Position numbers and translations under genes: made by a program. From an uncultured Acidimicrobiaceae bacterium (GTDB lineage Bacteria > Actinomycetota > Acidimicrobiia > Acidimicrobiales > RAAP-2), in assembly GCA_963850095.1 (NCBI GenBank), contig CAWKJX010000012.1:291737-355736 (forward strand): a stretch of 64,000 bases of DNA. Reading direction: 5' to 3'. Below the pieces are notes generated by a model, which saw nothing but the letters and a program-made list of their open reading frames with translations, ran no database searches and was not told where the DNA came from. Positions 10,112 to 49,355 of this stretch are shown here, one piece after another (within the stretch, counting starts at the first letter, position 1; every line of letters starts with the position of its first letter).

Positions 10112-10131
10112 TTTCTGACATCGACGTCGAA
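10112..10131 (-). promoter_or_regulatory. GACGTCG box, copy a (candidate operator)
   Basis: In gene orientation: TTCGACGTCGATGTCAGAAA, 39 nt upstream of the permease ATG (10072). One of six aligned copies (see findings). Confidence 0.6.
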
Positions 10132-10258
10132 TCTGATACTAAACCAGGCGCGCTGACCGTGCACGGGCGCCTGCCAGGCTTCTTACCTGGGGTTCCGTCG
10201 AGACGGAGCAGGTCAGGCGGCTACGCCCCGACCCCCACTCATTCCACGGTGTCCGGTC

Positions 10259-11164
10259 CTACTCGGCCCGCACCTTGTCCTTGAGCGCCGGCACAATCGG
10301 CGGCGCCTCCTTCCAATTGGGGATGCCCGAGTCCTCGAGCGCCACCGGGTAGTGGTTCTCGTTGACCTGGGCCCAGTGCGAGTGGTTGAGCTCGTGCAGC
10401 GTGAAGCACGCGTTCAGCGCGTTGTAGAAGCCCATGTTGTCGACGCTCTGGTTCACCGACTCCTTTATCAGCAGCGACGTCATGGTCGGCAGCTGGGCGA
10501 TGCGGCGGGCGAACTCGACGGTGCGGTCGGTCAACTGGTCATCGGGGAACACCTTGGTCACCATGCCGAGCCGGTGGGCCTCGTCGGCGTCGACCGAGTC
10601 GCCGGTCAAGAGGAGCTCCTTGGCCTTGCGCGGCCCGAACTCCCAGGGGTGCGCGAAGTACTCGACGCCGCACATGCCCAACCGGGTGCCCACCACGTCG
10701 GCGAACCGCGTGCCCTCGGCGGCGACGATGAGGTCGCAGGCCCACAGCAACATGAGACCGGCCGCGTACACGTCGCCGTGAGCCTGGCCGATCGTGATCT
10801 TGCGGAGATTGCGCCACCGGCGTGTGTTCTCGAAGAAGTAGTGCCACTCCTGGAGCATCAGCGACTCGGCGCCCTTGCGCGTGGCGCCGTTGATGGCACG
10901 GGTCGGATGCAGGGTGGGACCGGGCGTCATCTCCTCCCGGGACTCCTTGGAACCGAGGTCGTGGCCGGAGGAGAACATGGGTCCGGTGCCGCCGAGGATC
11001 ACGACCCGCACCTCGTCGTCCGCCTCGGCCGCCAGGAAGGCGTCGTTCAGCTCGACGAGCAGCCCCCGGTGCTGCGCGTTGCGCGAGCTGGGCCGGTTGA
11101 GCATGATGCGCACGATCCGGCCTTCGTCGAGCGTCTCGTAGAGCAGGTACTTGTAGTCAGGCAT
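10259..11164 (-). CDS. enoyl-CoA hydratase/isomerase family (crotonase fold)
   Basis: ORF 10259..11164(-), ATG start. Sequence: MPDYKYLLYETLDEGRIVRIMLNRPSSRNA...VVILGGTGPMFSSGHDL...GDVYAAGLML. Confidence 0.85.
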   Translation of the reverse strand: MPDYKYLLYETLDEGRIVRIMLNRPSSRNAQHRGLLVELNDAFLAAEADDEVRVVILGGTGPMFSSGHDLGSKESREEMTPGPTLHPTRAINGATRKGAESLMLQEWHYFFENTRRWRNLRKITIGQAHGDVYAAGLMLLWACDLIVAAEGTRFADVVGTRLGMCGVEYFAHPWEFGPRKAKELLLTGDSVDADEAHRLGMVTKVFPDDQLTDRTVEFARRIAQLPTMTSLLIKESVNQSVDNMGFYNALNACFTLHELNHSHWAQVNENHYPVALEDSGIPNWKEAPPIVPALKDKVRAE

Positions 11165-11309
11165 GTTCGTTCGGCCTCCTCGTGAGCTTGGCGTGGCGTC
11201 GGCGCGGCGACCCTACAGTGCGGACGAAATCGGTGCCGCATCGCGGGCCCGTGCGCGTGCGCCGAAGAGCGGGCCGGGCCGGGCCGCCGGCCAGCGACCG
11301 CCGTGGTCC

Positions 11310-12512
11310 CTACGAAACGGCGCCGGCGAGCGCCTCGACCTTCATGATGCGGGCCAGGTTGCCGCCCATGATCTGCCGCACGTCCTCTTCGGGCAGGCCC
11401 GCCGGCAGGTGGTCGACGTAGCTGGTCGGCTCGGCCAGGCCCTCGGGGTGCGGGTAGTCCGACCCGAACAGCACGTGGTCGACGCCGACCGTCTCGATGA
11501 GCCGGGTCAGGTCGTCCTCGTGGAACGGGCTGATCCACACGTTGGACTTGAACTGCTCGACCGGGTCGCCGTCGAAGGCATGCGGCATCTGGCGATGGAT
11601 GTGAGCCAGGTGGTCGACGAAAGGAGCCACCCAGTCGCCACCGCTCTCTATGTTGGCCACGCGCAACTCGGGGAACCGGGCGAACACACCGTGGCAGCAG
11701 AAGGCCGACATCGTGTCCTCGACGGCGCGCTTGCCCATGCTCATCATGCGGAACGCGTCCAGCCGGAAGGGCAGCATTTCGCTCGGACCGGTCCAGTCAC
11801 TCTGGTAGCGGGAGTACCCGCTGTCCGACGAATGCATGGAGACGAGGATGTCGGCGTCGACCACCGCCTGCCAGAACGGGTCGAACTCGGGGTAGCCGAA
11901 CGACCGTGAGCCGCGGTAACCCGGGACGGGTGCCGGGCGGACGAGCACGGTCTTGGCGCCGCGCTCGATCACCCACTCCAGTTCCTCGATCGCCTTCTCG
12001 ACGATCGGGAGCGTGATGACCGGCGTGGCGAAGATCCGGTTCTCGTAATTGAAGGTCCACTCCTCGTACATCCACTCGTTCAACGCGTGGATGGCCGCGT
12101 GCGTCAGGTCGGGCTCGTCGCGCAGACGCTCCTCGAGCAGGCTGGCCAGCGTCGGGAACATCAGCGCCCGATCGACACCCAGCTCGTCCATCAGCTCGAG
12201 GCGCGGCGCCGGCGCACTGAAGCCCGGCAGCGCCCGCATCGGCTCGCCGATGATCTCCCGATACGACTTGCCCTCGGGATTGCCGTTGCGGAAGTACTCC
12301 TCCTGTGCGCCCGGCCGGGCCACGACCTCGAAGGTCGGGTTCGGGATGTACTCGCTCACCGTGCCCCGGATCATGATCTTCGTCCGGCCGTGCAGGTCGA
12401 CGTAGTCGATGGCGCCCTTGTAGCGGTCGGGCAGGTGCCGGGTGAACGACTCCTTCGTCTCGTACAGGTGGTTGTCGGCGTCGAAGACGGGAAAGTCGAG
12501 CTTGGTGACCAT
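11310..12512 (-). CDS. amidohydrolase_2 family metal-dependent hydrolase/decarboxylase (400 aa)
   Basis: ORF 11310..12512(-). Sequence: FPVFDADNHLYE...ALMFPTLASLLEERL...GSDYPHPEG. Clear paralogue of 48100..49305. Confidence 0.85.
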   Translation of the reverse strand: MVTKLDFPVFDADNHLYETKESFTRHLPDRYKGAIDYVDLHGRTKIMIRGTVSEYIPNPTFEVVARPGAQEEYFRNGNPEGKSYREIIGEPMRALPGFSAPAPRLELMDELGVDRALMFPTLASLLEERLRDEPDLTHAAIHALNEWMYEEWTFNYENRIFATPVITLPIVEKAIEELEWVIERGAKTVLVRPAPVPGYRGSRSFGYPEFDPFWQAVVDADILVSMHSSDSGYSRYQSDWTGPSEMLPFRLDAFRMMSMGKRAVEDTMSAFCCHGVFARFPELRVANIESGGDWVAPFVDHLAHIHRQMPHAFDGDPVEQFKSNVWISPFHEDDLTRLIETVGVDHVLFGSDYPHPEGLAEPTSYVDHLPAGLPEEDVRQIMGGNLARIMKVEALAGAVS

Positions 12513-12528
12513 GGCTGCAGCCTATTGG

Positions 12529-12548
12529 ATTTTGACTGCGACGTCAAT
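12529..12548 (-). promoter_or_regulatory. GACGTCG box, copy b (candidate operator)
   Basis: In gene orientation: ATTGACGTCGCAGTCAAAAT (TTGAC-N6-GTCAA perfect arms), 16 nt upstream of the amidohydrolase ATG 12512. Confidence 0.6.
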
Positions 12549-12704
12549 ATTAGAATTGAGCCGGCAGCCTGCCCTGGTTCTGCCTCGCATCCGCTTGCCC
12601 CTCCGTCAGGCGGCTCCGCGGCCGGAGACTCGTGAACCCCGGCCGAGGTCTGCCCGAGCGGGCCCTGCTCCCGACCGTGGCCTAGCATGGCCCGAGTGTT
12701 CGAT

Positions 12705-12724
12705 TACGACGTCGATGTCAATAC
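12705..12724 (+). promoter_or_regulatory. GACGTCG box, copy c (candidate operator)
   Basis: TACGACGTCGATGTCAATAC, 27 nt upstream of GTG 12752. It lies in the same divergent gap as copy b. Confidence 0.6.
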
Positions 12725-12751
12725 TCGACCAAGGCGCAGGCCAGGACCACA

Positions 12752-14397
12752 GTGCGACCGCTCCCTGAACTGACGCCGACCAACGAATGGTTCTGGACGT
12801 CGGGAGCCGACGGGGTACTGCGCATCCAGGGGTGCGAGGACTGCGGCCGGCTGGCGCACCCGCCCGTGCCCATCTGCCCCTACTGCCGGAGCCGGACGGC
12901 CAAGCCGACGCCGGTGTCGGGCCGGGGCACCATCGTCGGCTTCACGGTGAACCAGCATCGCTGGCTGCCCGACTTCGATCCGCCCTATGTCATCGCGGTC
13001 GTCGCCTTGGCCGAGGATCCTCACGTCCGCCTGACGACCAACATCGTCGGCTGCGACCCGGCCGAGGTGCGCATCGGCCAGGAGGTCGCCGTCCGCTTCG
13101 AGCACCAGGACGACGTGTGGCTGCCCCTCTTCGAACCCACGGGGGCGATCGACCCGGTCGACCGCGTCGAAGAGCCGGTCCGTCCCCGGCCGCGTCAGCC
13201 GCTCACGGCCGACCGGTTCGAGCACCGGGCCGTCCTGAGCGGCGTCGGGCGCTCGCGCCTCGGCCGGCGCCTCATGATCGACCCCCTCGAGCTGGCGGTC
13301 GATGCCAGCCTCAAGGCGGTGGCCGACGCCGGGCTCACGCTCGAGGACATCGACGGCCTGTCCACCTATCCGGGCGGCGTCGGCGCCGGAATGACCGAGG
13401 GTGGGATCACCGCGCATCGAGGAAGCGCTGCGCCTCCACCCCACCTGGCACAACGGCGGCATGGATCTCCCCGGTCCGGGTGGGTCGATCGTCGCCGCCG
13501 CCATGGCCATCGCCGCCGGGCTGTGCCGCCACGTCCTGTGCTTCCGCACCGTCTGGGAGTCGACGTACGCCACGCTGGTGGCGCAGGGCGCCATCGGCGG
13601 CCACCGCGGCGCCAGCCGGGTGTCGGGACCGATGCAGGAGTGGCGCGCCCCGTTCGGCGCCCTGTCGGCCGGCAACTGGATCGGCATGAATGCCAACCAG
13701 TACCTCCATCGCTACGGCGCACCGCGCGAAATGCTCGGCCTCATCGCCCTCAATGCGCGCACGAACGCCGGACGGAACCCCGAAGCGATCTACCGCGAAC
13801 CCTTGACGATGGACGACTACCTCTCGGCGCGCCCCATCACCTCGCCGTTCGGCCTCTACGACTGCGACGTCCCCTGTGACGCCTCCATCGCGGTGATCGT
13901 CTCCGACGCGTCGGTGGCCGCCGACCTGCCCCACCCGGCCGTGCGCATCGAGGCCGTCGGCACCCAGATCCTCGAGCGGGTCTCGTGGGACCAGGGGACG
14001 CTCACGCACGAGCCGCAGGTCATCGGTCAGGCGGCGCATCTGTGGACGCGGACGGACCTGGGACCCGACGACGTCGACGTGGCCCTGATCTACGACGGCT
14101 TCACCTTCAACGCCATCTCCTGGCTCGAAGGGCCTCGGGTTCTGCGGGTTCGGCGAGGCCTACGACTGGCTCGAGGGCGGGCGCCGCATCGCCCTCGACG
14201 GCCAACTGCCCGTCAACCCGCACGGCGGCCAGCTCTCGGAAGGCCGGACGCACGGGTTCGGCTTCGTCTACGAAGCGGTGCAGCAGCTGCGCCACGAGGC
14301 GGGCGCCCGGCAGGTCACCGATGCCGCGACAGCCGTGGTCACGAGCGGTGGTGGCACGCCTTCGGGCGTGCTGCTCCTGCAGAGGGACGAGGCGTGA
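12752..14397 (+). pseudogene. DUF35 (Zn-ribbon/OB-fold)-thiolase-like (SCP-x/Ltp type) fusion, reading frame broken twice
   Basis: Three consecutive frames are needed. ORF 12752.. gives the CEDCGRLAHPPVPICPYCRS Zn ribbon, the OB fold, then LSGVGRSRLGRR..STYPGGVGAGMTEGGIT. After a +1 shift near 13412-13415, ORF 13401.. gives IEEALRLHPTWHNGG...LYDCDVPCDASIAVIV...FTFNAISWLEG. After a +1 shift at the GGGCC run 14130-14134, my own translation gives LGFCGFGEAYDWLEGGRRIALDGQLPVNPHGGQLSEGRTHGFGFVYEAVQQLRHEAG...LLLQRDEA-TGA at 14395-14397. Confidence 0.75.
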
Positions 14398-14455
14398 CGG
14401 CGGCGGCCACCGACAGACGTGTCCACCCGGGCACGGGACGGCCAACGGTACATTG

Positions 14456-15205
14456 ATGGCACCCGCGGCCAAGGATCCAGCGAAGGAGGGACGCGTGTCG
14501 ACGACGCGATCGCTGACCAACGGCGGCGACAAGCCGAGCGGACCCCGGTCCCGCAAGGGGGTCGAGACGCGGGCCCGGCTGGTGGCCGCGGCCAAGGAGG
14601 TCTTCGAACAGGACGGCTTCCTCGACGCCCGCATCTCGGACATCGCGGAGCGTGCCGGCCTTTCGCACGGCTCCTTCTACCACTACTTCGACTCGAAGGA
14701 AGAGGTGTTCCGCGAGGTGGCGCTCGAAGTGGACGAGTCGCTCACCGCGCCCATGAACGTGATCGTGGACCCGACGTCGTCCGCCACGCCCTACGAGCGC
14801 ATCCACGAGGCCATGCGGCTCCATCTGGAGAGCTACCGCAAGGAGGCGCGCATCATGGGCGTCATTGAGCAGGTGTCCCGTTTCGACTCCGAGGTGGGTT
14901 CGGCGCGGTTCGAGCGTCACCGCGAATACAACTCGTGGGTCACGAATTCCATCAGGAGCCTGCAGCGGCACGGCCAGATCGACGAGCGCCTCGACCCCGT
15001 CATTGCCGCGGCCGCCCTGGGGTCGATGACCTACCGCTTCCCTGAAATGTGGTTCGTGCAGGGGATGATCGACGTCGACTTCGACGATGTCGTCGACCAG
15101 CTGACACTTCTCTTCGTGCGGGCACTCGGTCTCCCCGAACCCCCCGAGGAGGTCTTGCCGCGCCTGGCCGCCACCAACGAAGCCGCCGGGCGCCCCTCGG
15201 CCTGA
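14456..15205 (+). CDS. TetR/AcrR family transcriptional regulator
   Basis: In frame with ORF 13985..15205, ATG at 14456. HTH region: RARLVAAAKEVFEQDGFLDARISDIAERAGLSHGSFYHYFDSKEEVF. Confidence 0.85.
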   Translation: MAPAAKDPAKEGRVSTTRSLTNGGDKPSGPRSRKGVETRARLVAAAKEVFEQDGFLDARISDIAERAGLSHGSFYHYFDSKEEVFREVALEVDESLTAPMNVIVDPTSSATPYERIHEAMRLHLESYRKEARIMGVIEQVSRFDSEVGSARFERHREYNSWVTNSIRSLQRHGQIDERLDPVIAAAALGSMTYRFPEMWFVQGMIDVDFDDVVDQLTLLFVRALGLPEPPEEVLPRLAATNEAAGRPSA

Positions 15206-15248
15206 CCCAGGCCCGGCACGGGGCCGGCCGAACGAGAGCTTCAGCCCA

Positions 15249-22639: not shown

Positions 22640-22763
22640 GGTCCTCTTCCTCTCGTCATCCGCATCGTGCCCACCCCGAGCGGGCGGGCGCGCCAGAGCG
22701 TGACACAGCCCGCGCTGCCCGGTGCCACGTGCCTGGAACGCCCTGGTTCGGAGGGTATCTGAC

Positions 22764-22783
22764 TTTGACGTCGTCGTCAAAAA
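22764..22783 (+). promoter_or_regulatory. GACGTCG box, copy d (candidate operator)
   Basis: TTTGACGTCGTCGTCAAAAA contains the perfect TTGAC-N6-GTCAA. It lies in the 296-bp divergent gap between the ALDH (ATG 22639) and the thioesterase (ATG 22936). Confidence 0.55.
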
Positions 22784-22935
22784 TGGCATTATCACTGGTC
22801 CGGAACTCAGGGTAACGGCCCCGTGCTCCCGGCCCGGCCGGGGCCCGGAGGCCGGACCTCCCCCGCCGGGCCGCCATCCGGCAGAGTGGGCGCCGTGACC
22901 CCGAGGACCGCACCGGCCCGAGACAAGGAGACCCG

Positions 22936-33335: not shown

Positions 33336-34307
33336 GTGACCGACGTCGACGTCCCACCGGCCGAGGAGATCATCCTCTACGAGAAGGATCCCAGCACCCG
33401 CATAGCCACGATCACCCTGAACCGGCCCGACCAACTCAACATCCCCACCATTGCCGCCCGCCGGCGCTACGCGGACCTGATCTTCAAGGCGAGCATTGAC
33501 GACGACGTCAAGGTCCTGGTGGTCCGGGGCGTCGGCGACCACCTCGGAACGGGCGCCGACCTCGACGAGCTGATGGCGAAGCAGGCCCAGGGCACGGCGC
33601 TGTACGAGGAGTTCGGTCTCGACGAGGATGACGACGTCACCATGCCACCCGCGCGCTCGTATCGCGCCGGGGCGTCGCTCCTGCACTGGTACGGCAATAC
33701 GAGGTCGGGCTGCCGAAGCCTCCAGGACTTCAAGAAGATCAGCATTCTCGAGGTCAAGGGCTACTGCTACGGCTGGCACTTCTACCAGGCCGGCGATGCC
33801 GACATCGTCATCTCGTCCGACGACGCGCTCTTCGGCCATCCGGCGTTCCGCTATGTCGGCTACGCACCGCGCATGTGGCAGTGGGCGATGATGATGGGCC
33901 TGCGCAAGTTCCAGGAGATGGTGTTCACCGGGCGACCTTTCACCGCGGAGCAGATGTACGACTGCAACTTCGTGAACAGTGTCGTGCCCCGCGATCAGCT
34001 CGAAGCAGAGGTGGAGAAGTACGCCCGCGCCTGTGCGCGCACGCGGCCCACCGACACCGTGTTCATGCAGAAGGTGTTCTTCGAGGTGATGAAGCAGCAG
34101 CAGGGCGAATACATGGGCAGCCTCCTCAGTGCGTGGCTGGAGTCCATGGGTGGCCAGCTCCGCAGTGACGATGACGGCAAGCGGGCCACCCTCAGCCAGG
34201 AGACGATGGACGCCGGCCTGAACTTGGCAGTCAAGGACAACGACAGCTGGTTCCCGCCCGAGTGGCGTCTCAGCCAATCGGGTCGCCGGCGTCCCGAAGA
34301 CGACTGA
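33336..34307 (+). CDS. enoyl-CoA hydratase/isomerase family (323 aa)
   Basis: In frame with ORF 33282..34307. The GTG at 33336 follows GGAAGGAG. Sequence: EIILYEKDPSTRIATITLNRPDQLN...VLVVRGVGDHLGTGADL...EVKGYCYGWHF. Confidence 0.8.
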   Translation: MTDVDVPPAEEIILYEKDPSTRIATITLNRPDQLNIPTIAARRRYADLIFKASIDDDVKVLVVRGVGDHLGTGADLDELMAKQAQGTALYEEFGLDEDDDVTMPPARSYRAGASLLHWYGNTRSGCRSLQDFKKISILEVKGYCYGWHFYQAGDADIVISSDDALFGHPAFRYVGYAPRMWQWAMMMGLRKFQEMVFTGRPFTAEQMYDCNFVNSVVPRDQLEAEVEKYARACARTRPTDTVFMQKVFFEVMKQQQGEYMGSLLSAWLESMGGQLRSDDDGKRATLSQETMDAGLNLAVKDNDSWFPPEWRLSQSGRRRPEDD

Positions 34308-34308
34308 C

Positions 34309-36744
34309 GTGACCCCGGCTCCCTCGGGCGGTCCGGGTGGCGCTCCCCCGTCGGCGCCGCCGCTGGACGGGCTCCGGGTCGTCGATCTGTCGACGTGGAT
34401 CGGAGGCGCGTACTGCACGAAACTGTTGGGCGACGGCGGCGCCGAGGTCATCAAGGTCGAGGAACCCGCCGGTGATCCGTTGCGACAGTGGTCGGCCTCG
34501 GGCGCGGCCATCCCGGCCGGCCGCGATGGCGCTCTCTTCAACTTCCTCGCCGCGTCGAAACGGAGCGTCGTCGTCGATGGGGAGAACGCCGAGGATGTGG
34601 CCTCGCTCCACCAGCTCCTCGCGTCGGGGGACGCCGTCGTCTGGTCCCGTGGATCGACGCTGGCCCAGCAGCCGTCACTGGAGCCACGCGAAATCCTTCG
34701 CCGCCACCCTCACCTGATCGTCTCCTCCATCACCCCGTTCGGCCTCGAGGGGCCGTGGAGCGACAGGGCCGCCACCGAATTCACCCTGCAGGCGTGGTCG
34801 GGAGGGATCGTCGGGCTGGCGCGCGGGCTGCCCGACCGCGCGCCGGTGCACGTCGGTGGTCAAGTCGGCGAATGGCTCTCGGGGGTCTTCGCCGCCATCG
34901 GGACCCTGGCCGCCATCCGTCGCCGAGACCCGAACGGCCAGCTCGTCGACGTGTCGATGCTCGAGGCGCTGGCGATGTGCCTGACCTACTACCCAGTGAC
35001 GTTCAACGACCAGCTTGGGCACCCCATGCGCCGCCGCCGGTTCATCCCGACCCCGGGTGTCGGTGCCGCCAAGGACGGCCTCGTCGGGCTGGGGTGCGGG
35101 ACGGGGCAGCAGTGGCTGGACTTCTGCGTCATGGTCGAGCATCCCGAATGGATGGAGGACCGATCGCTCTTCCTCGACCGGACGAAATTGGCGCCGGTCA
35201 TCGATGCCTGGATCGCGGGACAGACCGTCGACGAGGTGCTCGACCAGGCCTCGGCGTTCCGGATCCCCAACGCGCCCATCGCCAAGGGCTCGAACATCAC
35301 CACGTTCGAGCACTTCGCCGAACGGGGGACGTTCACGGGCAACCTGCGGGACGGTGCGGCCAATCCGGTTCCGCCGTTCCGGTTCGGCTCGGCGCGCCTC
35401 CGCCCGCCCGAGCCCGCCCCCAGCCTCGGAGAGCTACCGGTCGACGGCGCCCTGCCGCGTGAGCGATCGGCCGAGGGCTCTGCCGGCGGTGCGGCAGCGC
35501 TCCCTTTCGAGGGGCTGCGGATCCTCGACATGACCTCCTACTGGGCCGGCCCACTCGCCGGGCACGTGCTGGCGCTCCTCGGGGCCGAGGTGATCCACCT
35601 CGAGTCGGCGGCCCGGCCCGATGGGGCCCGCCTGGTCGGTGGGGTCCCGCAAACGGAGGATCGCTACTGGGAGCGAGGCCCGATCTTTGCCGCGCTCAAC
35701 ACCAACAAGAAGAGCTTGACCATCGACCTCCGCCAGCCACGAGGCATCGATCTGGTGCGTCGCTTCGTCGGAACGTGCGACGTGGTCATTGAGAACTACA
35801 CCCCACGCGTGCTGGACCAACTGGGTCTCGACTACGAGACGCTCCGGGCGGATCGTCCCGACCTGATCATGCTCCGGATGCCGGGGTTCGGTCTCGAGGG
35901 ACCGTGGCGTGACGAGGCGGCCTTTGCCTTCGTGATCGAGGACGCCTCCGGGCTCACGTGGCTGACCGGGCATCCCGATCTCCTTCCGTTCGAGCCGTAT
36001 TGCATCGGTGACCCCAACGCGGGGCTCCACGCGCTCTTCGGGCTGATGCTCGCCCTCGAACACCGTGACCGCACGGGGGAAGGCGGCCTCGTGGAAACCG
36101 CGATGGTCGACGCCGCGGTGAACATCGCCGCCGAGCAACCGATCGAGTTCTCGGCCTACGGGGCGGTCCTGGCCCGCAACGGCAACCGGGGGCCCTGTGC
36201 GGCGCCCCAGAACCTCTACCAGGCGGCCGGGCCGGACGAGGACGGCCGCGACGACGCCTGGGTAGCCATCGCCGTCGCCACCGACGAGCAGTGGCTGTCG
36301 CTCCGCCGGGCACTGGGCGAGCCGGAATGGGCCGCCGACCCTGCCCTGGCGACGGCGGAAGGGCGTCGACGCGACCACGACCGGATCGACGAGTTCCTCG
36401 GAGCCTGGTGTCGCGAGCGGGCGGCGAGCGTGATCGTGGAGAGCCTCTGGCGGGTCGGTGTGCCGGTGGGAAGAGTGGTGCAGCCCCACCGGCAGCCCGA
36501 GCTCCCGCAACTCGAGTCCCGTGACTTCTTCGAAGAGGTGCTCCACCCGGTGATCGGAACGTCGCGCTACAGCACGCTTCCGATGAAGTTCTCGCGCGGG
36601 CCGGCCCACCTGCACCAACGGCACGCGCCGCTTCTCGGGGAGCACAACGAGGAGCTCCTGGGCGGCCTCGGCCTCACCCGGTCGGAGATCGACGCACTCG
36701 AAACGGAGGGGATCATCGGTGGTTCGCTCGTCGCGGATGCCTGA
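34309..36744 (+). CDS. tandem-fused family III CoA-transferase (two CaiB/BaiF-type units in one 811-aa chain)
   Basis: A single uninterrupted ORF 34309..36744. Unit 1 begins LDGLRVVDLSTWIGGAYCTKLLGDGGAEVIKVE. Unit 2 begins FEGLRILDMTSYWAGPLAGHVLALLGAEVIHLE and ends with the usual PLLGEHNEELL. Confidence 0.85.
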   Translation: MTPAPSGGPGGAPPSAPPLDGLRVVDLSTWIGGAYCTKLLGDGGAEVIKVEEPAGDPLRQWSASGAAIPAGRDGALFNFLAASKRSVVVDGENAEDVASLHQLLASGDAVVWSRGSTLAQQPSLEPREILRRHPHLIVSSITPFGLEGPWSDRAATEFTLQAWSGGIVGLARGLPDRAPVHVGGQVGEWLSGVFAAIGTLAAIRRRDPNGQLVDVSMLEALAMCLTYYPVTFNDQLGHPMRRRRFIPTPGVGAAKDGLVGLGCGTGQQWLDFCVMVEHPEWMEDRSLFLDRTKLAPVIDAWIAGQTVDEVLDQASAFRIPNAPIAKGSNITTFEHFAERGTFTGNLRDGAANPVPPFRFGSARLRPPEPAPSLGELPVDGALPRERSAEGSAGGAAALPFEGLRILDMTSYWAGPLAGHVLALLGAEVIHLESAARPDGARLVGGVPQTEDRYWERGPIFAALNTNKKSLTIDLRQPRGIDLVRRFVGTCDVVIENYTPRVLDQLGLDYETLRADRPDLIMLRMPGFGLEGPWRDEAAFAFVIEDASGLTWLTGHPDLLPFEPYCIGDPNAGLHALFGLMLALEHRDRTGEGGLVETAMVDAAVNIAAEQPIEFSAYGAVLARNGNRGPCAAPQNLYQAAGPDEDGRDDAWVAIAVATDEQWLSLRRALGEPEWAADPALATAEGRRRDHDRIDEFLGAWCRERAASVIVESLWRVGVPVGRVVQPHRQPELPQLESRDFFEEVLHPVIGTSRYSTLPMKFSRGPAHLHQRHAPLLGEHNEELLGGLGLTRSEIDALETEGIIGGSLVADA

Positions 36745-37373
36745 GAACGCTTCGACGGGGCCGTATCGTGGGCGGATGGGCTTCCAGGCGGCCCCCTTCG
36801 ACGTCGTCGAGGCGTCGCGTCGCGTCTGGCTGGAGCGCTGGGACCCCGAGGCAGCCTCCGGCATGGCGGTGTTCACCGCGATTCTGCGCTCCTACCAGCT
36901 CCTCAACGACCAGGTGAACCATGTGATGAGGCGACCACGACCTCACGTTCGCCCGTTACGAGGTGCTGGCCTGGCTGGCCACGGACCCCGAATCGTCATT
37001 GACCTTGAGCTGGATCAGCAAGACCCTGCGCATTCCGCCGGCCACGGTCACGGACATCATCGACCGGCTGGAGCACGACAAGCTCGTCCGGCGGGTGCCC
37101 CATCCATCGGACGCCCGCACGACACTCGCCGTGATCACACCGCGAGGCCAACGGGCCGTCACGGACGCCACCCAGGACCTGAACTCGATCGTGTACGAAC
37201 GAATCGGCCTGTCCGAACCGCAGCGAGACCGACTCATCGATCTGCTGGCCGAGTTGCGGGCGAGCGGGAACGAGTTCGACGTCGCACGCTCGAACGAGGT
37301 CATTGAGGAAGTCGGATCGCGTCAGGAGCGCCGGCGCGGGCGGTCCGGCAAGAGCGAAGTCGAGGTGGTGTAG
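36737..37373 (+). pseudogene. MarR family transcriptional regulator, one +1 frame break at about 36935
   Basis: ORF 36719.. gives ...MGFQAAPFDVVEASRRVWLERW...LLNDQVNHVMRR. After an extra C, HDLTFARYEVLAWLATDPESSLTLSWISKTLRIPPATVTDIIDRLEHDKLVRRVPHPSDARTTLAVITPRG follows (ORF 36963..37373). Start is ATG 36737 (8-nt overlap with the upstream gene) or ATG 36776. Confidence 0.7.
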
Positions 37374-38151: not shown

Positions 38152-39453
38152 ATGGCGTGGGACTTTGAAACCGATCCCGAGTACCAGACGAAGCTGGACT
38201 GGGTCGACCAGTTCGTGCGGGAGGAGGTCGAACCCCTCGACCTGGCCTTTCCCCACCTGCAATTCACTCCCCTCGAGGGCAAGCGGCGCGAGGCGATCGA
38301 CCCGCTGAAGGAGGAGGTGCGTCGACAAGGGTTGTGGGCCACCCACCTGGGACCCGAACTCGGTGGCCAGGGCTACGGGCAGTTGAAGCTGGCCCTGCTC
38401 AACGAAATCCTCGGACGCTCGTCGTGGGCGCCCATCGTCTTCGGGTGCCAGGCGCCCGACACGGGCAACGCGGAGATCATCGCCCACTACGGCACGGACG
38501 CGCAGAAGGAGCGCTACCTGCAGCCGCTGCTCACCGGCGAATGCTTCTCGAGCTATTCCATGACCGAGCCACATGCCGGCGCCGACCCCACCCTGTTCAA
38601 GACGCGGGCCGAGAAGGACGGTGACGAGTGGGTGATCAACGGCTGGAAATACTTCTCCTCGAACGCGAAGACGGCATCGTTCCTCATTGTGATGGCGGTG
38701 ACGAACCCGGAGATCAGCCCCTACAAGGGCATGTCCATGTTCCTGGTGCCCACCGACACGCCCGGCGTCAACATTGTGCGCAACGTCGGCCTCTATGGCG
38801 AGCCCGTCAACGAGGGCTCGCACGCCCTCATCCACTACGAGGACGTGCGCGTCCCGGAAGAGTCACTGCTGGGCGGCGACGGGCAGGCCTTCGTAATCGC
38901 CCAGACCCGACTCGGCGGCGGACGCATCCACCACGCCATGCGCACCATCGGCATGGCCCAGAAGGCGATCGACATGATGTGCGAGCGCGCGCTGAGCCGT
39001 GAGACACAGGGCAGCCTGCTGGCGGACAAGCAATTCGTGCAGGGCTACATCGCCGACTCGTACGCCCAGCTGATCCAGTTCCGCTTGTTCGTGCTCTACA
39101 CGGCGTGGGAGATCGACAAGTACAACGACTACAAGCGGGTGCGTAAGGACATCGCCACGGCCAAAGTCGTCATGCCCACCGTGCTGCACGACATCGCCTG
39201 GCGCGCCATGCAGGTGCACGGCGCGCTCGGGACGACCAACGAAATGCCGTTCTTCGGCATGATCCACGGCGCCGGCGTCATGGGCCTGGCCGACGGGCCG
39301 ACCGAGGTGCACAAGATCACCGTGGCCCGTCAGGTGCTGCGCGACTACAAGCCGAGCGACGACATCTGGCCGACCCAGTGGCTGCCCAAGCGCCAGGAGG
39401 CGGCCCGGGCCAAGTTCGCCGAATACCTCGAGCTCGAGGTCGGGAACCTGTGA
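38152..39453 (+). CDS. acyl-CoA dehydrogenase (ACAD10/11-, FadE2-like; 433 aa)
   Basis: ORF 38152..39453. The ATG follows CAGGGAGGG. Motifs: SMTEPHAGADPT, INGWKYFSSNA, ADGPTEVHKITVAR. Confidence 0.85.
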   Translation: MAWDFETDPEYQTKLDWVDQFVREEVEPLDLAFPHLQFTPLEGKRREAIDPLKEEVRRQGLWATHLGPELGGQGYGQLKLALLNEILGRSSWAPIVFGCQAPDTGNAEIIAHYGTDAQKERYLQPLLTGECFSSYSMTEPHAGADPTLFKTRAEKDGDEWVINGWKYFSSNAKTASFLIVMAVTNPEISPYKGMSMFLVPTDTPGVNIVRNVGLYGEPVNEGSHALIHYEDVRVPEESLLGGDGQAFVIAQTRLGGGRIHHAMRTIGMAQKAIDMMCERALSRETQGSLLADKQFVQGYIADSYAQLIQFRLFVLYTAWEIDKYNDYKRVRKDIATAKVVMPTVLHDIAWRAMQVHGALGTTNEMPFFGMIHGAGVMGLADGPTEVHKITVARQVLRDYKPSDDIWPTQWLPKRQEAARAKFAEYLELEVGNL

Positions 39454-40535
39454 GCACGATCGAGGAGGACCTGTTCGGCGGTCCGGCGCCGACCATCGCG
39501 GACGTCGACAAGCTGACGGCCTGGCTCGACACCCAGGGTCTGGGTGCCGGCGCACCGTTGGAGCACCACTACATTTCCGGCGGCAGCCAGAACGAGATCT
39601 TCGAGCTGCGCCGGGGCGACCTGCACTGCGCCATGCGCATCCCGCCGAAGAGCGCGCCGTCGTCGCGTGACGACGGCATCGTGCGCGAGTGGCGCATCAT
39701 CGAGGCGCTGACCGGGACCGACGTCCCGCACACCGAGGCCATCGCCGTGTGCACCGACCCGGCCGTGCTGGGCCGCACCTTCTACCTGATGGGTTTCGTC
39801 GACGGGTGGTCCCCCATGTCCACCCGGCGCCAATGGCCGCCGCCCTTCGACACCGACCTCGAGCAGCGCGGCGGACTGGCTCTCCAGCTGGTCGAGGGCA
39901 TCGCCCTGCTGGGCAACGTCGACTGGCAGGCCAAGGGACTGGCGGACCTGGGGCGACCCGAGGGTTTCCACGAGCGCCAGGTCGACCGCTGGACCGCGTT
40001 CCTCGAGCGGATCAAGGGCCGCGAGCTGCCCGGCTTCGACGAGGCGGCCGCCTGGCTGCGAGCGCACCGTCCCATCGACTACATCCCCGGCATTATGCAC
40101 GGCGACTACCAGTTCGCCAACGTGATGTTCAAGCACGGCGGGCCGGCCCGCCTGGCCGCCATCGTGGACTGGGAGATGGGCACGGTGGGCGACCCCAAGC
40201 TGGACCTGGGGTGGGTCGTGCAATCCTGGCCCGAGGACACGACGAGCGACGAGGACCGCCAAGGCGGCTACGTCGACATGACCGGCATGCCGTCGCGCGA
40301 CGAGGTCCTGGCCCACTACGCCAAGACGTCGGGCCGCCAGGTCGACGACATCGACTACTACTGCGTGCTGGCCAAGTGGAAGCTGGCCGTCGTGCTGGAG
40401 CAAGGCTTCCAGCGTGCCGCCGACGACGAGAAATTGATGGCGTTCGGTCCCATTGTGCTCGGCCTCATGGCGGGTGCGGCCGAGCTGGCCGAGACGACCG
40501 ACTACGCGGTGCTCGCCACCTCGGGCACCGACTGA
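39450..40535 (+). CDS. phosphotransferase (aminoglycoside-phosphotransferase/choline-kinase fold, 361 aa)
   Basis: In frame with ORF 39378..40535. The GTG at 39450 overlaps the ACAD stop (GTGA). Motifs: catalytic loop HGDYQFANVMF (HxDxxxxN), IVDWEMGTVGDP. Confidence 0.85.
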   Translation: MSTIEEDLFGGPAPTIADVDKLTAWLDTQGLGAGAPLEHHYISGGSQNEIFELRRGDLHCAMRIPPKSAPSSRDDGIVREWRIIEALTGTDVPHTEAIAVCTDPAVLGRTFYLMGFVDGWSPMSTRRQWPPPFDTDLEQRGGLALQLVEGIALLGNVDWQAKGLADLGRPEGFHERQVDRWTAFLERIKGRELPGFDEAAAWLRAHRPIDYIPGIMHGDYQFANVMFKHGGPARLAAIVDWEMGTVGDPKLDLGWVVQSWPEDTTSDEDRQGGYVDMTGMPSRDEVLAHYAKTSGRQVDDIDYYCVLAKWKLAVVLEQGFQRAADDEKLMAFGPIVLGLMAGAAELAETTDYAVLATSGTD

Positions 40536-40541
40536 ACCTTC

Positions 40542-41522
40542 GTGCGCGCCGCGCTCTGCCGCACCTACGGCGGCCCCGAGGTCGTGGTGGTCGAGGACGT
40601 GCCGGTGCCGGAGATCGGCCCCGGCCAGGTACGGGTGCGCATCACCATCGCCGCCCTGAACTTCCCCGACGTGCTGGTGGTGGCGAACCAGTACCAGGCG
40701 CAGGCCCCGACGCCGTTCATCCCCGGCAGCGAGTTCGCCGGCGAGGTCGTCGAGGTGGGTGACGGCGTGACCGGATTCGCCGTGGGCGACCGGGTGTTCG
40801 GCTCGACCTTCATCGGCGCCTTCGCCGAAGAGGTGGTCGTGGGCACAGGATCGCTGACGCGCACGCCGCCCGACGTGGACGACCGTGTGGCGGCCTCCTT
40901 CGGCGTGGCCTACAAGACGGCGTACCACGTGTTGCGCTCGGTGGCCTCGCTGGCAGCCGGTGAAGAACTGATTGTGCTGGGAGCCGGCGGCGGAGTGGGC
41001 TCGGCCGCGGTCCAGCTGGGCGCAGTGCTGGGTGCGTCGGTGACGGCAGTGGCCTCGTCGCCCGAGAAGCTCCAGGCGGCCAAGGCGTGCGGCGCCGAGC
41101 GTCTCATCCAGCACGGATCGGGCGACCTACGCCAGGCGCTCCGCGACGCCCTGCCCGACGGAGCAGACGTGGTGATCGACCCCGTCGGAGGTGATCTGGC
41201 CGAGCCCGCCTTGCGGACCCTGCACTACGACGGGCGCTTCGTCACAGTCGGCTACGCCTCGGGGACCATTCCGCGCATACCTCTCAACTTGGTGCTCCTG
41301 AAGGGTGTCCACGTTCTCGGCTTCCAATTCCGCGACTTCGCCCTGCACCGGGGCGATGAAATGGTCCGCAACGACGCCGAGCTGCTGGGCCTGCTGGCGG
41401 AGGGAAAGGCCGAGCCCCTGATCGGGGCCACGTTCGGGCTCGATGAGGCGGCAGCCGCCCTGGCCTACGTGGCCGAGGGACGGGCGGTGGGCAAGGTGGT
41501 GCTCGAGGTGGCACCCGTCTAA
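40542..41522 (+). CDS. MDR-family NADPH:quinone oxidoreductase / zinc-type alcohol dehydrogenase-like protein
   Basis: ORF 40542..41522, GTG start. Sequence: PGQVRVRITIAALNFPDV..., nucleotide motif VLGAGGGVGSAAVQLG. Confidence 0.85.
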   Translation: MRAALCRTYGGPEVVVVEDVPVPEIGPGQVRVRITIAALNFPDVLVVANQYQAQAPTPFIPGSEFAGEVVEVGDGVTGFAVGDRVFGSTFIGAFAEEVVVGTGSLTRTPPDVDDRVAASFGVAYKTAYHVLRSVASLAAGEELIVLGAGGGVGSAAVQLGAVLGASVTAVASSPEKLQAAKACGAERLIQHGSGDLRQALRDALPDGADVVIDPVGGDLAEPALRTLHYDGRFVTVGYASGTIPRIPLNLVLLKGVHVLGFQFRDFALHRGDEMVRNDAELLGLLAEGKAEPLIGATFGLDEAAAALAYVAEGRAVGKVVLEVAPV

Positions 41523-41523
41523 T

Positions 41524-41543
41524 ATCGACGTCGATGTCAAGGT
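41524..41543 (+). promoter_or_regulatory. GACGTCG box, copy e (candidate operator)
   Basis: ATCGACGTCGATGTCAAGGT lies immediately after the oxidoreductase stop (41520-41522) and 16 nt upstream of the CoA-transferase GTG 41560. Confidence 0.6.
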
Positions 41544-41559
41544 CAGAGGGAGGGTTGCG

Positions 41560-42787
41560 GTGAGCGCGACCGCTGTGATGAAGGGCGTACGCGTCCTGGA
41601 AGTAGCCGAGCAGACGTTCGTGCCGGCGGCCTCGGCCCTCCTGGCCGACTGGGGGGCCGAGATCATCAAGATCGAGCCGACCGAACGCGGCGACGCCATG
41701 CGCGGCCTGGCCGCCACCGGCGTGATGCCGCTCACCGGCGACGTCCACCCCCTGATGGAGCACTCGAACCGCGGCAAGCGCAGCCTGGCCCTCGACCTGG
41801 GCTCGCCCGACGGACTCGAGATCCTCTACAAATTGGCGGAGACGGCCGACGTGTTCCTGATCAACAAGCTGCCGCGGGTGCGCAAGAAGCTCAAGATCGA
41901 GCTCGAGGACATTCGCGCCCACAACCCGAACATCATCTACGTGGCGGGCACGGGGCAGGGCGAGCGAGGACCCGACGCCGACAAGGGCTCCTACGACGCG
42001 CTCGGCGTTCTGGTACCGGGCCGGGGTGGCGCTGGGCGTCAAACCGGCCGACCAGGACCTGATGCCGGGGCCACCGGGGCCCGGCTTCGGCGATTCCATC
42101 GGCGCCATGACCATCGCCGGCGGAATTATGGGCGCGCTGTTCCACCGCGAGCGCACCGGCGAGGCCACCACCGTCGACGTGTCGCTCCTCAGCTCGGGCA
42201 TGTGGGCCATGGGCCAGGCCTTCGCACTCTCGCTCCTGCTCAACCAGCCCTGGCAGGGGCCTCCCTCCAACGCGCCCCGGCTCAACCCGCTCGTGCGCAA
42301 CTACCAGACCAAGGACGAGCGCCAACTGGCCCTGTGCTGCCTGCAGGCCACCCGCTACTGGGGAGAGCTGTGCGAACTGGTGGGCCAGCCTGAGGCGGCG
42401 ACCGATCCCCGCTTTGCCGACCACGAGTCACTCATGGAGAACACGGCGGACGCGCAGGCACTGATGGCGACTGCGTTCGCCGAGCGGCCGCTGACCGAAT
42501 GGCGCGAGCGGCTGGCCGACTTCACCGGGCAGTGGTGCGTCGTGCAGGACACGCTCGAGGCAGCCACGGTTGATCCGCAGGTGGCGGCCAACGGGTACAT
42601 GCAGGACAGCGCCACGGCGTCGGGCACGCCCTTCCAGCTCGTGGCGGCGCCGGTGCAGTTCGGTGGCGAGGCCGCGCCCGTGGGCCGGTCGCCCGAATTC
42701 AACGAACACGGCGACGACATCCTGGCCGAGCTCGGAATCGACTGGGATACCATCGTCGACCTCAAGGTCCGCTCCGTGGTCGGGTGA
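41560..42787 (+). pseudogene. family III CoA-transferase (CaiB/BaiF type), one +1 frame break at about 42003-42006
   Basis: The GTG at 41560 (AGAGGGAGGG upstream) gives SATAVMKGVRVLEVAEQTFVPAASALLADWGAEIIKIE...GSYDAL. After an extra G, AFWYRAGVALGVKPADQDLMPGPPGPGFGDSIGAMTIAGGIMGAL... follows (own translation plus ORF 42026..42787). Confidence 0.8.
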
Positions 42788-43667: not shown

Positions 43668-43670
43668 GCA

Positions 43671-43690: not shown

Positions 43691-43709
43691 CCCGCGGTAT
43701 GAGAGCCCT

Positions 43710-44501: not shown

Positions 44502-44520
44502 GTCGGAGGGCAGAGGGCAG

Positions 44521-44979: not shown

Positions 44980-44991
44980 GAGGAGATCTGT

Positions 44992-45423: not shown

Positions 45424-45436
45424 GGAGGAACAGAGC

Positions 45437-47850: not shown

Positions 47851-47865
47851 GGGTCCCTTTCTATT

Positions 47866-47879
47866 TGCAACACGTTGGT
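47866..47879. promoter_or_regulatory. KstR-like box TGCAACACGTTGGT (AAC-NN-GTT core)
   Basis: It lies 15 nt upstream of the binding-protein ATG (47850). In gene orientation it reads ACCAACGTGTTGCA, compared with the mycobacterial KstR consensus TnnAACnnGTTnnA. Confidence 0.4.
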
Positions 47880-48099
47880 GGTCTGGACGGCAAGCGCCCA
47901 GACAGCTCAGATCTGACGGGCCGGGTCGGCACAGGACGATGCGTGTCGAACCAGAGCACGATAGGCGTCGGAAGGCCGCAGGTGGTCGCGCCCCCTTGGT
48001 GCAGGAATCGCCCAGGCACGGCGGCGGCACGGAACTCGGACAGGCGACCGCCGTCGCCATGGGCCAACCCGGCTGGACCGCGATGAAGGGCGGTGCCGC

Positions 48100-49305
48100 T
48101 CAGGCCGCGAAGGGGATCTTCATGACCTCGGCCAAGTTGCCGCCCATGACCTTGGCCACGTCCTCGTGGGGCAGGCCGTCGAGTTCCTTGACGTACGTGA
48201 GGGGCTCGGCCATGCCCTCGATGTGCGGGTAGTCAGATCCGAACACCACACGATCGGCGCCGATCAGATTGATCAACCCGATCGGGTCGTCCTCGTGGAA
48301 CGGGTGGACCCAGATGTTGCGCTTGAGCACCATGAGCGGGTCCTCGTCGTAGATGGCGGGTTCGCGCTCGTAGGAGATGGTGAGAGCGTCGACGATCGGG
48401 CGCACCCAGGCGGAGCCGTTCTCGACCGGCAAGATCCGTAGCGTGGGGTGCCGGGTCAGCATGCCGTGCCCGATGAGGGAGGCCACGGTGTCGAAGATGC
48501 CGCGGCTCTGCGTGTGCGCGATGTCCGAAAAGGCGCTCTTGCCGCCCGAAAACGGGAGGAGCTCACCATCGCGCCGCCCCTCCCACTGGTTGTAGTACCG
48601 GATGAGCCCGTCATCCGACGCGTGCATACCGACGGCGACGTCGAACTCGGCCACCTTGTCCCAGAACGGGTCGAACTCGGGCAGTGCGAAGGAGCGGCGT
48701 CCCTCGTAGCCAGGCACCGGCGCCGGGCGAACCAGGATGATTTTGGCGCCGCGCTCGACCACCCACTCCAACTCCTTGATGGCTTCGCTCACGATGGGGA
48801 GCGTGATGATCGGCGTGGGGAAGATACGGCCCTCGTAGTTGAACGTCCAATGGTCGAGCATCCACTGGTTCAAAGCGTGCACGACGGCATGGGTCGCCTT
48901 CGGGTCGTCGGCCAGGCGCTCCTCGAGCAGGCTGGCCAGTGTCGGCCACATGAGCGCACGGTCGATCCCGAGCTCGTCCATGATTTTGAGACGAGGTGCA
49001 GGGGCGAAGAAGCCTTCGGGTGAGCGCATCGCCTCGCCGATCAGCTCACGCCGGGACTTGCCCTCGGGGTTGCCCTCCTTGAAGTAGGCCTCCTGCGCAC
49101 CCGGCCGGCCGACCACCTCGAAGGTGGGGTTGGGGATGTAATCGGAGATCACGTTGCGGATGGCGATTTTGGTGCGACCGTTGACCTGGACGTACTTGAT
49201 GAGGCCCTCGTACTGCGGGGGGAGGAATTTCGTGAATGCGTCCGTCGTCTCGTACATGTGGTTGTCTGCGTCGAAGACGGGAAAGTCGACAACGGTGTTG
49301 GGCAT
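48100..49305 (-). CDS. amidohydrolase_2 family metal-dependent hydrolase/decarboxylase (401 aa)
   Basis: ORF 48100..49305(-). Sequence: FPVFDADNHMYE...ALMWPTLASLLEERL...GSDYPHIEG. Paralogue of 11310..12512. Confidence 0.85.
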   Translation of the reverse strand: MPNTVVDFPVFDADNHMYETTDAFTKFLPPQYEGLIKYVQVNGRTKIAIRNVISDYIPNPTFEVVGRPGAQEAYFKEGNPEGKSRRELIGEAMRSPEGFFAPAPRLKIMDELGIDRALMWPTLASLLEERLADDPKATHAVVHALNQWMLDHWTFNYEGRIFPTPIITLPIVSEAIKELEWVVERGAKIILVRPAPVPGYEGRRSFALPEFDPFWDKVAEFDVAVGMHASDDGLIRYYNQWEGRRDGELLPFSGGKSAFSDIAHTQSRGIFDTVASLIGHGMLTRHPTLRILPVENGSAWVRPIVDALTISYEREPAIYDEDPLMVLKRNIWVHPFHEDDPIGLINLIGADRVVFGSDYPHIEGMAEPLTYVKELDGLPHEDVAKVMGGNLAEVMKIPFAA

Positions 49306-49335
49306 GACGGGCCTCCGTGATCTCGAGGGATCAGA

Positions 49336-49355
49336 TTTTCAACATCGACGTCAAT
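49336..49355 (-). promoter_or_regulatory. GACGTCG box, copy f (candidate operator)
   Basis: In gene orientation: ATTGACGTCGATGTTGAAAA, 30 nt upstream of ATG 49305. It shares the 13-mer GACGTCAATATTA (plus strand) with copy b. Confidence 0.6.

Follow-up and report, generated by a model that had tools for sequence, protein, structure and literature searches.

Related TetR-family regulons

Several repressors of the TetR family bind their operators as two dimers, among them QacR, CgmR, CprB, SlmA, Ms6564 and FadR of Bacillus halodurans, the last of which is released by acyl-CoA (PMC5397183). For Ms6564, a motif of the form ACGAGACG-N3-CGTCTCGT has been described (PMC3273814). Here, we analysed a 64 kb stretch of DNA from an uncultured Acidimicrobiaceae bacterium (hereafter the window, to which all coordinates refer; its G+C content is about 70%), in which six copies of a 20-bp box lie ahead of catabolic transcription units. 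The architecture of this box, its conservation in related genomes and its co-inheritance with a TetR-family gene are presented below, and we consider it probable that a pathway-specific repressor uses the boxes as operators, the most likely candidate being the TetR protein encoded at 14456/14495-15205 of the same window.

The locus shares with the two-dimer systems a TetR_N regulator encoded within the cluster and an operator of about 24-26 bp, which consists of four units resembling hexamer half-sites and overlaps the promoter. B. halodurans FadR offers a further parallel, its targets being CoA-dependent fatty-acid genes and its release being brought about by acyl-CoA. In contrast to these systems, however, the left outer arm of the site is weak here; moreover, the site is unrelated in sequence to the Ms6564 operator, and the window TetR, unlike a Bacillus-type FadR, scores 37.3 bits on NF053878, for which the cut-off is 200.

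The proposed plan also resembles that of the KstR and KstR2 regulons, in which a single, autoregulated repressor of the TetR family acts through a short palindrome found at many promoters of a large catabolic island; these islands, too, abound in acyl-CoA dehydrogenases, hydratases, thiolases, P450s and CoA-transferases. The KstR motif, in contrast, is TnnAACnnGTTnnA with AAC-N2-GTT spacing, whereas the spacing here is GAC-N6-GTC. Taking the KstR consensus as we know it, no AAC-N2-GTT core is present in the six boxes or in a matrix of 81 sites, so that the sequence-only reading was right in setting the box apart from both operators. The KstR2 structures 4w97 and 4w1u match only residues 38-152 of the window TetR, at an E-value of about 1e-7, which does not amount to orthology, and the window showed no genes for steroid ring cleavage. 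Operators of the TetR-family proteins FadR and PaaR of Thermus thermophilus (TTRNACYNRGTNYAA and CNAACGNNCGTTNG) are likewise pseudopalindromes over promoter hexamers of beta-oxidation-type genes, with an acyl-CoA effector, but they belong to another lineage and have an AC-to-GT spacing of 3 or 2 nt instead of the 6 nt found here. Searches of the open literature for the motif, its halves and CGACGTCG together with TetR returned only primers and unrelated motifs, and we know of no other operator that it resembles. To judge by these negative string searches, the operator is undescribed, while the kind of system, a TetR-family pathway regulon, is familiar: a real but ordinary gene switch.

Conservation and anatomy of the six boxes

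All six 20-mers have the coordinates, strands and sequences given in the sequence-only reading and lie within non-coding gaps, and the distances to the start codon claimed for five of them (39, 16, 27, 16 and 30 nt for boxes 1, 2, 3, 5 and 6) are correct. Box 1 (10112-10131, minus strand, TTCGACGTCGATGTCAGAAA, 39.3 bits) precedes the LivHM ATG at 10072, and box 2 (12529-12548, minus strand, ATTGACGTCGCAGTCAAAAT, 44.1 bits) the amidohydrolase ATG at 12512. Together with its upstream hexamer, box 3 occupies 12699-12724 of the plus strand (TTCGAT followed by TACGACGTCGATGTCAATAC, 38.1 bits) ahead of the DUF35-thiolase GTG at 12752, and box 4 occupies 22758-22783, also on the plus strand (TCTGAC followed by TTTGACGTCGTCGTCAAAAA, 38.8 bits), in a divergent gap of 295 bp. 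Box 5 (41524-41543, plus strand, ATCGACGTCGATGTCAAGGT, 34.0 bits) begins 1 nt past the TAA stop of a Zn-dependent alcohol dehydrogenase (ADH) gene and is followed by the ribosome-binding site GGGAGGG and the CoA-transferase GTG at 41560; similarly, box 6 (49336-49355, minus strand, ATTGACGTCGATGTTGAAAA, 39.5 bits) is followed by GGAGG and the ATG of a paralogous amidohydrolase at 49305. The scores derive from a 27-bp matrix made solely from sites of other genomes and applied to the window, where the six boxes reach 34.0-44.1 bits and the next-best site on either strand, located in coding DNA, only 17.0 bits; the window therefore holds exactly six sites. The 16-mer TTGACGTCGATGTCAA gave 12 strand-matches in the window at up to three mismatches, against 0.23 expected. 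A seventh near-match at 33496-33511 (2 mismatches) was rejected, as it lies inside an enoyl-CoA hydratase gene, scores only 14 bits and is a chance codon run (S-I-D-D-D-V-K). The short GACGTCGNNGT is frequent in coding DNA (17 matches in the window), GAC and GTC codons being the source.

An alignment (A1) of amidohydrolase homologues led to 80 reference-genome loci, each about 21 kb long and together 1.52 Mb, and it is these loci (labelled L in the following) that the comparison covered. Most of them come from metagenome-assembled genomes (MAGs) labelled Acidimicrobiaceae; Microthrixaceae, Mycobacteriales, Frankia/Parafrankia, Streptomyces, Actinomadura, Mycobacterium and three Polyangiaceae are also represented. 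With a matrix of the six window sites, 76 site clusters of at least 22 bits were detected in this material, compared with 0 in triplet and hexamer shuffles. Including the window, 81 of 83 sites are not spanned by an open high-GC3 frame, although 74% of random positions are; the sites are thus strongly non-coding, and within these loci the comparison of coding with non-coding DNA suggested by the sequence-only reading came out in favour of the box. The same holds for its conservation upstream of orthologous genes, which was seen in more than 20 Acidimicrobiales MAGs, and the box also occurs in Frankia, Parafrankia, Mycobacteriales MAGs and Polyangiaceae. It lies ahead of orthologues of the box-2 amidohydrolase (the 11310-type) in L001-L031 and L045, of LivHM in 19 loci, of the DUF35-thiolase in about 20 loci, and of the 41560-type CoA-transferase in Frankia (L033) and Parafrankia (L064). 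Amidohydrolase paralogues are preceded by it as well, the counterpart of box 6 in L010 being cataatATTGACGTCGATGTCGA, and the divergent thioesterase/aldehyde dehydrogenase (ALDH) gap contains it in L001 and in the metagenome loci L093, L117 and L198. With the same box preceding orthologues of these gene classes in many genomes, the proposal that one operator ties the listed transcription units into one regulon is supported.

Two fixed matrices, the six-site window matrix and the one made from relatives, were used in place of a matrix iterated on all hits, which drifted towards runs of GAC/GTC codons and copies in a shifted register (308 "sites"). A loose expression, YGAC-N6-GTYR, was uninformative (1193 matches, mostly coding). 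A metagenome scan with TYGACGTCGNNGTCARAA gave about a dozen relevant contigs among the matches listed, most of which were low-GC chance sequences and an unrelated repeat. With loose matrices, 15-21 bits were also obtained for a GAC/GTC-rich stretch coding for part of the TetR C-terminus (15066-15099, I-D-V-D-F-D-D-V-V-D-Q); in orthologues (e.g., L004 4607) this stretch is conserved as protein, and we treated it as a coding coincidence.

Among 81 distinct sites, the information content is high at positions -5 to +20, numbered from the 20-mer, and about zero outside -5 to +21. Their consensus is t-t-y-R-A-T / A-T-Y-G-A-C / G-T-C-G-A-t / G-T-C-A-A-A / A-a, or, in hexamer form, tYRAT, ATYGAC, GTCGAt and GTCAAA. 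Conservation thus reaches 6 bp upstream of the original 20-mer and reveals four hexamers; because positions -5 to 0 were not used in site selection, they are independent evidence that the 20-mer had been truncated on its left. The imperfect palindrome TTGAC-N6-GTCAA with an A-rich 3' flank, as first described, held up in the 81-site matrix, where it appears as T-Y-G-A-C and G-T-C-A-R separated by 6 nt, a quasi-palindrome that contains a GACGTC core and is joined by a weaker 5' hexamer (tYRAT). In 65 distinct sites, its pairs are symmetric in fractions of 0.95, 1.0, 1.0, 0.6 and 0.86, G-T being counted. This symmetry, together with the conservation from -5 to +20, is that of a palindromic operator of 15-30 bp. 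A second, overlapping symmetry is centred on GACGTC, with arms further out that are symmetric in only 0.2-0.66 of sites; a perfect palindrome of 24 bp with its centre between GAC and GTC was downgraded on these grounds.

Two features emphasised in the sequence-only reading stand for the window and have to be relaxed beyond it. GACGTCG and the following GT are invariant in the six window copies, but G10 is replaced by A in 11 and by T in 3 of the 81 distinct sites, and in distant loci the whole centre varies (TTGAC-N6-GT[C/T]A[A/G]AA). The common orientation of the six copies is correct as written, but it is a soft feature, reflecting a quasi-palindrome cut on its weaker left arm as well as promoter constraints: the apparent polarity comes from the inner GTCG, the A-rich 3' flank and the weaker 5' arm, and the reverse strand scores 21-26 bits with the drifted matrix.

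Amidohydrolase homologues of other lineages (L059-L080, L036-L052) carry different conserved palindromes about 20-80 nt upstream, near position 10001 in most loci; the box is therefore a regulatory solution of particular lineages and does not belong to the gene as such. In Mycobacterium (L060, L068, L070, L072, L075-L077, L079) the palindrome is GTGGTAACGTCATTACCAC, in Streptomyces, Actinomadura, Parafrankia and Catenulispora it is GAGAAT-N3-NTTCTC, and other Acidimicrobiales have AACGGTACTCTC...ATTCTC; presumably, these are operators of other regulators. A related but distinct box, (T/G)TGAC-N6-GTTAGAAA, was found in L020, L026, L034, L050 (e.g., 4072-4091), L055 and L056 as well as at L007 11333 and L003 20900. 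It also lies at the -35/spacer region of leaderless-looking promoters, some of these loci encode TetR paralogues of about 30% identity, and a sister regulator may use it as operator.

Position of the box relative to predicted promoters

All transcription starts given here were inferred from sequence. In high-GC Actinobacteria, TAnnnT is the -10 pattern, and a promoter-to-ATG layout without room for a ribosome-binding site is the signature of leaderless mRNA. In the amidohydrolase class, TAnnnT follows TTGACG at a distance of 16-19 nt in 27 of 34 sites and ends 6-9 nt ahead of the start codon in 25 of these 27. The distance is 6 or 7 nt in 23 of them, which results in the layout TTGACG (-35), 17/18 nt, TAnnnT (-10), 6/7 nt, ATG. 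Within TAnnnT the T, the A and the final T are conserved and the three middle bases are free; the initiator Met never varies in the protein alignment, and there is no space for a ribosome-binding site. The promoter of this class is therefore predicted to be leaderless, with the box forming its -35 hexamer and spacer. For box 2, the geometry is TTGACG at 12542-12547, 17 nt, TAGGCT at 12519-12524, 6 nt and the ATG at 12512.

Box 4 appears to provide the -35 hexamers of two divergent promoters. On the plus strand, TTGACG (22765-22770) is followed after 16 nt by CATTAT (22787-22792) in the direction of a thioesterase gene (ATG 22936); on the minus strand, TTGACG (22775-22780) is followed after 17 nt by TACCCT (22752-22757) in the direction of the genes for ALDH (ATG 22640), P450, amidohydrolase and acyl-CoA dehydrogenases. 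The orthologous gap of L001 retains GGGTATCTGAC and the box, and a AGGGTATCTGAC stretch near box 4 is conserved there.

At the remaining boxes, the putative -10 element lies upstream. A TAGTAT situated 4 nt upstream of box 1 (10136-10141) is kept together with the box in 19 orthologous LivHM loci, so that the box should overlap the transcription start, and the LivHM transcript would begin with about 55 nt of leader, including a ribosome-binding site. The -10-like TAATAT at 41520-41525 abuts box 5, and CATAAT at 49356-49361 is directly upstream of box 6. All orthologues of the DUF35 class have TAnnAT at a distance of 16-17 nt ahead of the 20-mer (TAGCAT at 12683-12688 in the window), which places box 3 at about +3 to +30 of the putative DUF35-thiolase-TetR transcript. 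All these positions are predicted to be repressor positions and, judged by the -35/-10/start-codon geometry, the operator would lie over the promoter or start of its targets as well as of the regulator's own unit.

Variations of this arrangement were seen in two groups. In L023 and L024, the amidohydrolase has a leader of 47-57 nt with another palindrome about 30-70 nt upstream of the ATG (TGACCG-N5-CGGTCA in L023), in addition to the box at -35, and this palindrome may be the site of a second regulator. In Polyangiaceae, two full boxes stand in tandem, 23 bp from start to start, ahead of a 68%-identical amidohydrolase (L028 9928-9970, L030 4787-4829, L029 from 9927 onward), with a TetR orthologue about 4 kb downstream; tandem boxes are also present in the metagenome loci L088 and L119. 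The Polyangiaceae arrangement suggests a cross-phylum transfer of cluster, regulator and operator.

Candidate repressor and alternative explanations

Of 60 open reading frames (ORFs) scanned in the window, only two contain regulator domains, namely a TetR (14456-15205, plus strand; PF00440, E = 1e-15) and a MarR (36963-37373), and both had been named as possible cognate regulators, the latter at 36737. Of the two, only the TetR is supported. Tblastn revealed no orthologue of the MarR in any box-bearing locus, nor is there a box near its gene, whereas the TetR has both its operon placement and its co-occurrence with the box across lineages in its favour. Its helix-turn-helix (HTH) domain corresponds to residues 199-245 of ORF 13985-15205; TetR_C_24 scores 25.5 bits on the ORF ending at 15205, below the Pfam cut-off of 26.4. 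The last base of the thiolase stop TGA (14454-14456) is also the first of the TetR ATG at 14456; AAGGAGG stands ahead of a second possible start, the GTG at 14495. Neither a separate promoter nor a separate box was detected for the TetR gene, and there is no intergenic gap to the thiolase. The gene is therefore most likely co-transcribed from box 3 and would be autoregulated.

Co-inheritance of regulator and box can be seen across the 80 loci. By tblastn, TetR orthologues were detected in L001-L009, L011-L019, L022-L025, L028-L030 (Polyangiaceae, 54-57% identity) and L033 (Frankia, 60%), and 47 loci that lack the box yielded none; 25 loci have both TetR and box, one only the TetR, seven only the box and 47 neither (Fisher p = 2e-13, a value inflated by shared ancestry). 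The check for a regulator gene that co-occurs with the motif, as proposed in the sequence-only reading, thus singled out the TetR, the MarR having no match anywhere. The sole TetR-positive, box-negative locus, L029, has a site of 21.8 bits. Orthologues in box-bearing loci are 45-78% identical to the window protein, and the two co-occur in at least five independent lineages. Gene order has changed around the pair in Frankia, Polyangiaceae, L025, L023/24, L175 and L197: in Frankia L033, the TetR gene is divergent from the box that precedes the CoA-transferase orthologue; in the metagenome locus L197, a 45%-identical TetR starts 131 nt from the box; and in L175, a 59%-identical TetR lies on the box-bearing contig. 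Although the orthologues share only 49-78% identity overall, their HTH region (RISDIAERAGLSHGSFYHYF) hardly varies, which fits a conserved operator.

According to the mechanism that we propose, the TetR protein would bind the quasi-palindrome and thereby cover, at each of six promoters, either the -35 with the spacer or the transcription start, excluding RNA polymerase or blocking its escape, and would repress its own operon via box 3. At the 11310-type amidohydrolase, the left half-site would serve as -35 hexamer of the leaderless promoter, and in the ALDH/thioesterase gap two half-sites would be the -35 hexamers of the divergent pair. At LivHM, the CoA-transferase and the second amidohydrolase, with the -10 just upstream, the box would cover the transcription start, and in the DUF35-thiolase-TetR unit about +3 to +30. 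A pathway intermediate, plausibly a CoA thioester, might bind the repressor and release it, by analogy with TetR-family regulators of CoA-dependent clusters. Hypothetically, two dimers on overlapping palindromes offset by 6 bp would explain the four hexamers, the inner GTCG and the 5' tYRAT.

A more far-reaching version of this proposal, which we put forward only tentatively, holds that the four half-sites are bound cooperatively by two dimers of an uncharacterised TetR subfamily and that regulator, operators and CoA-dependent pathway form one horizontally moved unit. At the centre of the pathway would stand the leaderless Amidohydro_2, highly conserved at about 80% identity between families, together with DUF35-thiolases and a Liv-type importer, and this self-contained regulon would have moved among Acidimicrobiia, Frankiales, Mycobacteriales and Myxococcota (Polyangiaceae). 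With half-sites doubling as -35 hexamers, promoter and operator would have been transferred in one piece.

Several observations weigh against the assignment of the boxes to the local TetR or against parts of its mechanism. Seven box-bearing loci (L010, L021, L027, L031, L045, L048, L064) have no TetR orthologue within 10 kb, two of them being limited by a contig end, and most of the co-occurrence comes from syntenic close relatives. The TetR is not close to characterised members, its best PDB match having an E-value of 1.5e-13 and its NCBIfam scores lying far under the cut-offs. With regard to the promoters, a scan for E. coli-type sigma-70 promoters (at least 4/6 matches to TATAAT) called none in 10050-12800, because the -10 hexamers match only TAnnnT, and the -35 elements are either weak or hard to define at boxes 1, 5 and 6. 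Only part of the sites show symmetry in the outer-left arm (a fraction of 0.2-0.66 per position), which leaves the two-dimer idea weakly based.

The TetR-less loci and the prevalence of syntenic relatives would both be expected if the boxes were operators of another protein, either a regulator encoded elsewhere or a member of a family with 5-N6-5 sites such as CRP/FNR, and the local TetR a syntenic passenger. This we regard as rather unlikely. The spacing of TTGAC-N6-GTCAA does resemble that of CRP-type sites, whose consensus is TGTGA-N6-TCACA-like with a centre near -41.5 or -61.5, but the half-sites here are TTGAC/GTCAA, and in the leaderless class the centre lies at about -27.5 to -30.5 (about -27.5 for the CRP/FNR comparison), where a repressor rather than a class II activator (-41.5) would be expected. 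A passenger would also hardly travel jointly with the box across lineages with altered gene order, nor would its gene be expected to lie, as it most likely does, in a box-controlled operon or, as in L033 and L197, divergent from a box; besides the MarR, no further regulator domain is encoded in the 60 window ORFs scanned.

That the box is a mere promoter feature, i.e., a strong -35 followed by a conserved spacer, or else a sequence recognised by an alternative sigma factor, is very improbable. TTGACG agrees with the -35 consensus in 5/6 positions and lies 16-18 nt from TAnnnT in boxes 2 and 4, as such an explanation would demand, but in the LivHM, DUF35, CoA-transferase and 48100 classes the conserved -10 is upstream of the box, so that the box is not a -35 there. 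Moreover, the GTCAA half-site and the inner GACGTC are as conserved as TTGAC (1.1-2.7 bits), which a -35 alone does not explain, and the tandem of two full boxes in Polyangiaceae points in the same direction.

Even less credible is a cis-acting RNA element, such as a hairpin in the 5' untranslated region or a leader that binds a protein or ligand. UUGAC and GUCAA could pair, box 6 retains pairing via G-U wobbles (GTTGA), and the box would be transcribed at four of the six window sites; on the other hand, it lies upstream of the predicted start in the amidohydrolase class and at box 4, and no compensatory change was observed, C3 facing A16 in 26 of 65 distinct sites and the pair 1-18 forming in 20%. 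Rfam gave 0 matches at gathering thresholds over the whole window. With sequence rather than structure conserved and the start downstream of the box in two classes, the box should act as DNA and not as RNA.

Finally, a chance origin in codon usage rich in GAC and GTC, or membership in a family of dispersed repeats of the repetitive extragenic palindromic (REP) or miniature inverted-repeat transposable element (MITE) type, for which the abundance of GACGTCGNNGT in coding DNA, the look-alike at 33496 and the presence of the same 18-mer in an unrelated MITE-like repeat of another organism might speak, is effectively refuted by the shuffles (0 expected at the observed scores), the non-coding location (81/83) and the relatives-only matrix, as well as by the lack of conservation beyond about 26 bp, the absence of terminal repeats and the occurrence of sites at orthologous promoter positions. 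The repeat in question is a dispersed element of about 125 bp in an organism of about 50% GC (contigs JAAUXT01...), with terminal inverted repeats of about 30 bp (TTTCACATTGGGTGACGCGCGGTCGTTTT ... AAAACGACCGCGCGTCACCCAATGTGAAAA) and TTGACGTCGGCGTCAAAA inside. It occurs among L081-L200, e.g., in L160 (7 copies in 11 kb), L099, L126, L142, L143 and L173, and looks like a MITE without connection to the operator.

The genes of the putative TetR regulon comprise uptake functions, namely LivHM-G-F permease and ATPase genes and a Peripla_BP_6 binding protein, and enzymes: two paralogous Amidohydro_2 proteins, enoyl-CoA hydratase, DUF35-thiolase(s), P450, acyl-CoA dehydrogenases, thioesterases, a family-III CoA-transferase operon and an aldehyde dehydrogenase of the Rv0768-type, which scores 664.6 bits on TIGR04284, below the cut-off of 775 bits. 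The amidohydrolase behind box 2 (11310-12512, minus strand), which had no identical entry in an exact-match index, has its closest homologues, of 94-80% identity, in uncultured Acidimicrobiales; the closest proteins to this amidohydrolase and to the window TetR are 94% (P0001) and 96% (P0121) identical, respectively. Behind box 3, the first gene or genes of the unit (12752-14456, plus strand) encode a DUF35 protein (ChsH2-like OB/zinc-ribbon) and a thiolase, and this region is read in two frames with a switch near 13400, an apparent frameshift. The family-III CoA-transferase is split as well, with profile positions 1-141 in ORF 41560-42393 and 155-365 in ORF 42026-42787; the split genes at 41560-42787 and 12752-14456 may be assembly indel errors or real pseudogenes.

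As to the importers, the LivH and LivM permease halves are fused in a single ORF of 677 aa (8039-10072), the window has at least four Peripla_BP_6 binding-protein genes (starts at 4901, 46579, 52820 and 54818), and no box accompanies the second set of permease and ATPase genes at about 58-61 kb. Just upstream of box 5 (38152-41522), genes for an acyl-CoA dehydrogenase, an APH-type phosphotransferase and the Zn-dependent alcohol dehydrogenase stand in a row. Pairs of an acyl-CoA dehydrogenase and a kinase act on 4-hydroxyacyl-CoA in ACAD10/11 and Lva-type routes.

No current concept of bacterial regulation is challenged by these findings. They provide a clean sequence example of operator half-sites that double as the -35 of leaderless and divergent promoters, and the TetR/operator pair could become a biosensor. 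For the Acidimicrobiales, an abundant and uncultured soil lineage, they offer a concrete, testable regulon, whose operator can be used as a probe to delimit pathway genes across genomes, and the mix of a Liv-type importer, CoA-transferases, DUF35-thiolases, Amidohydro_2, P450 and aldehyde dehydrogenase in the cluster helps in guessing the substrate.

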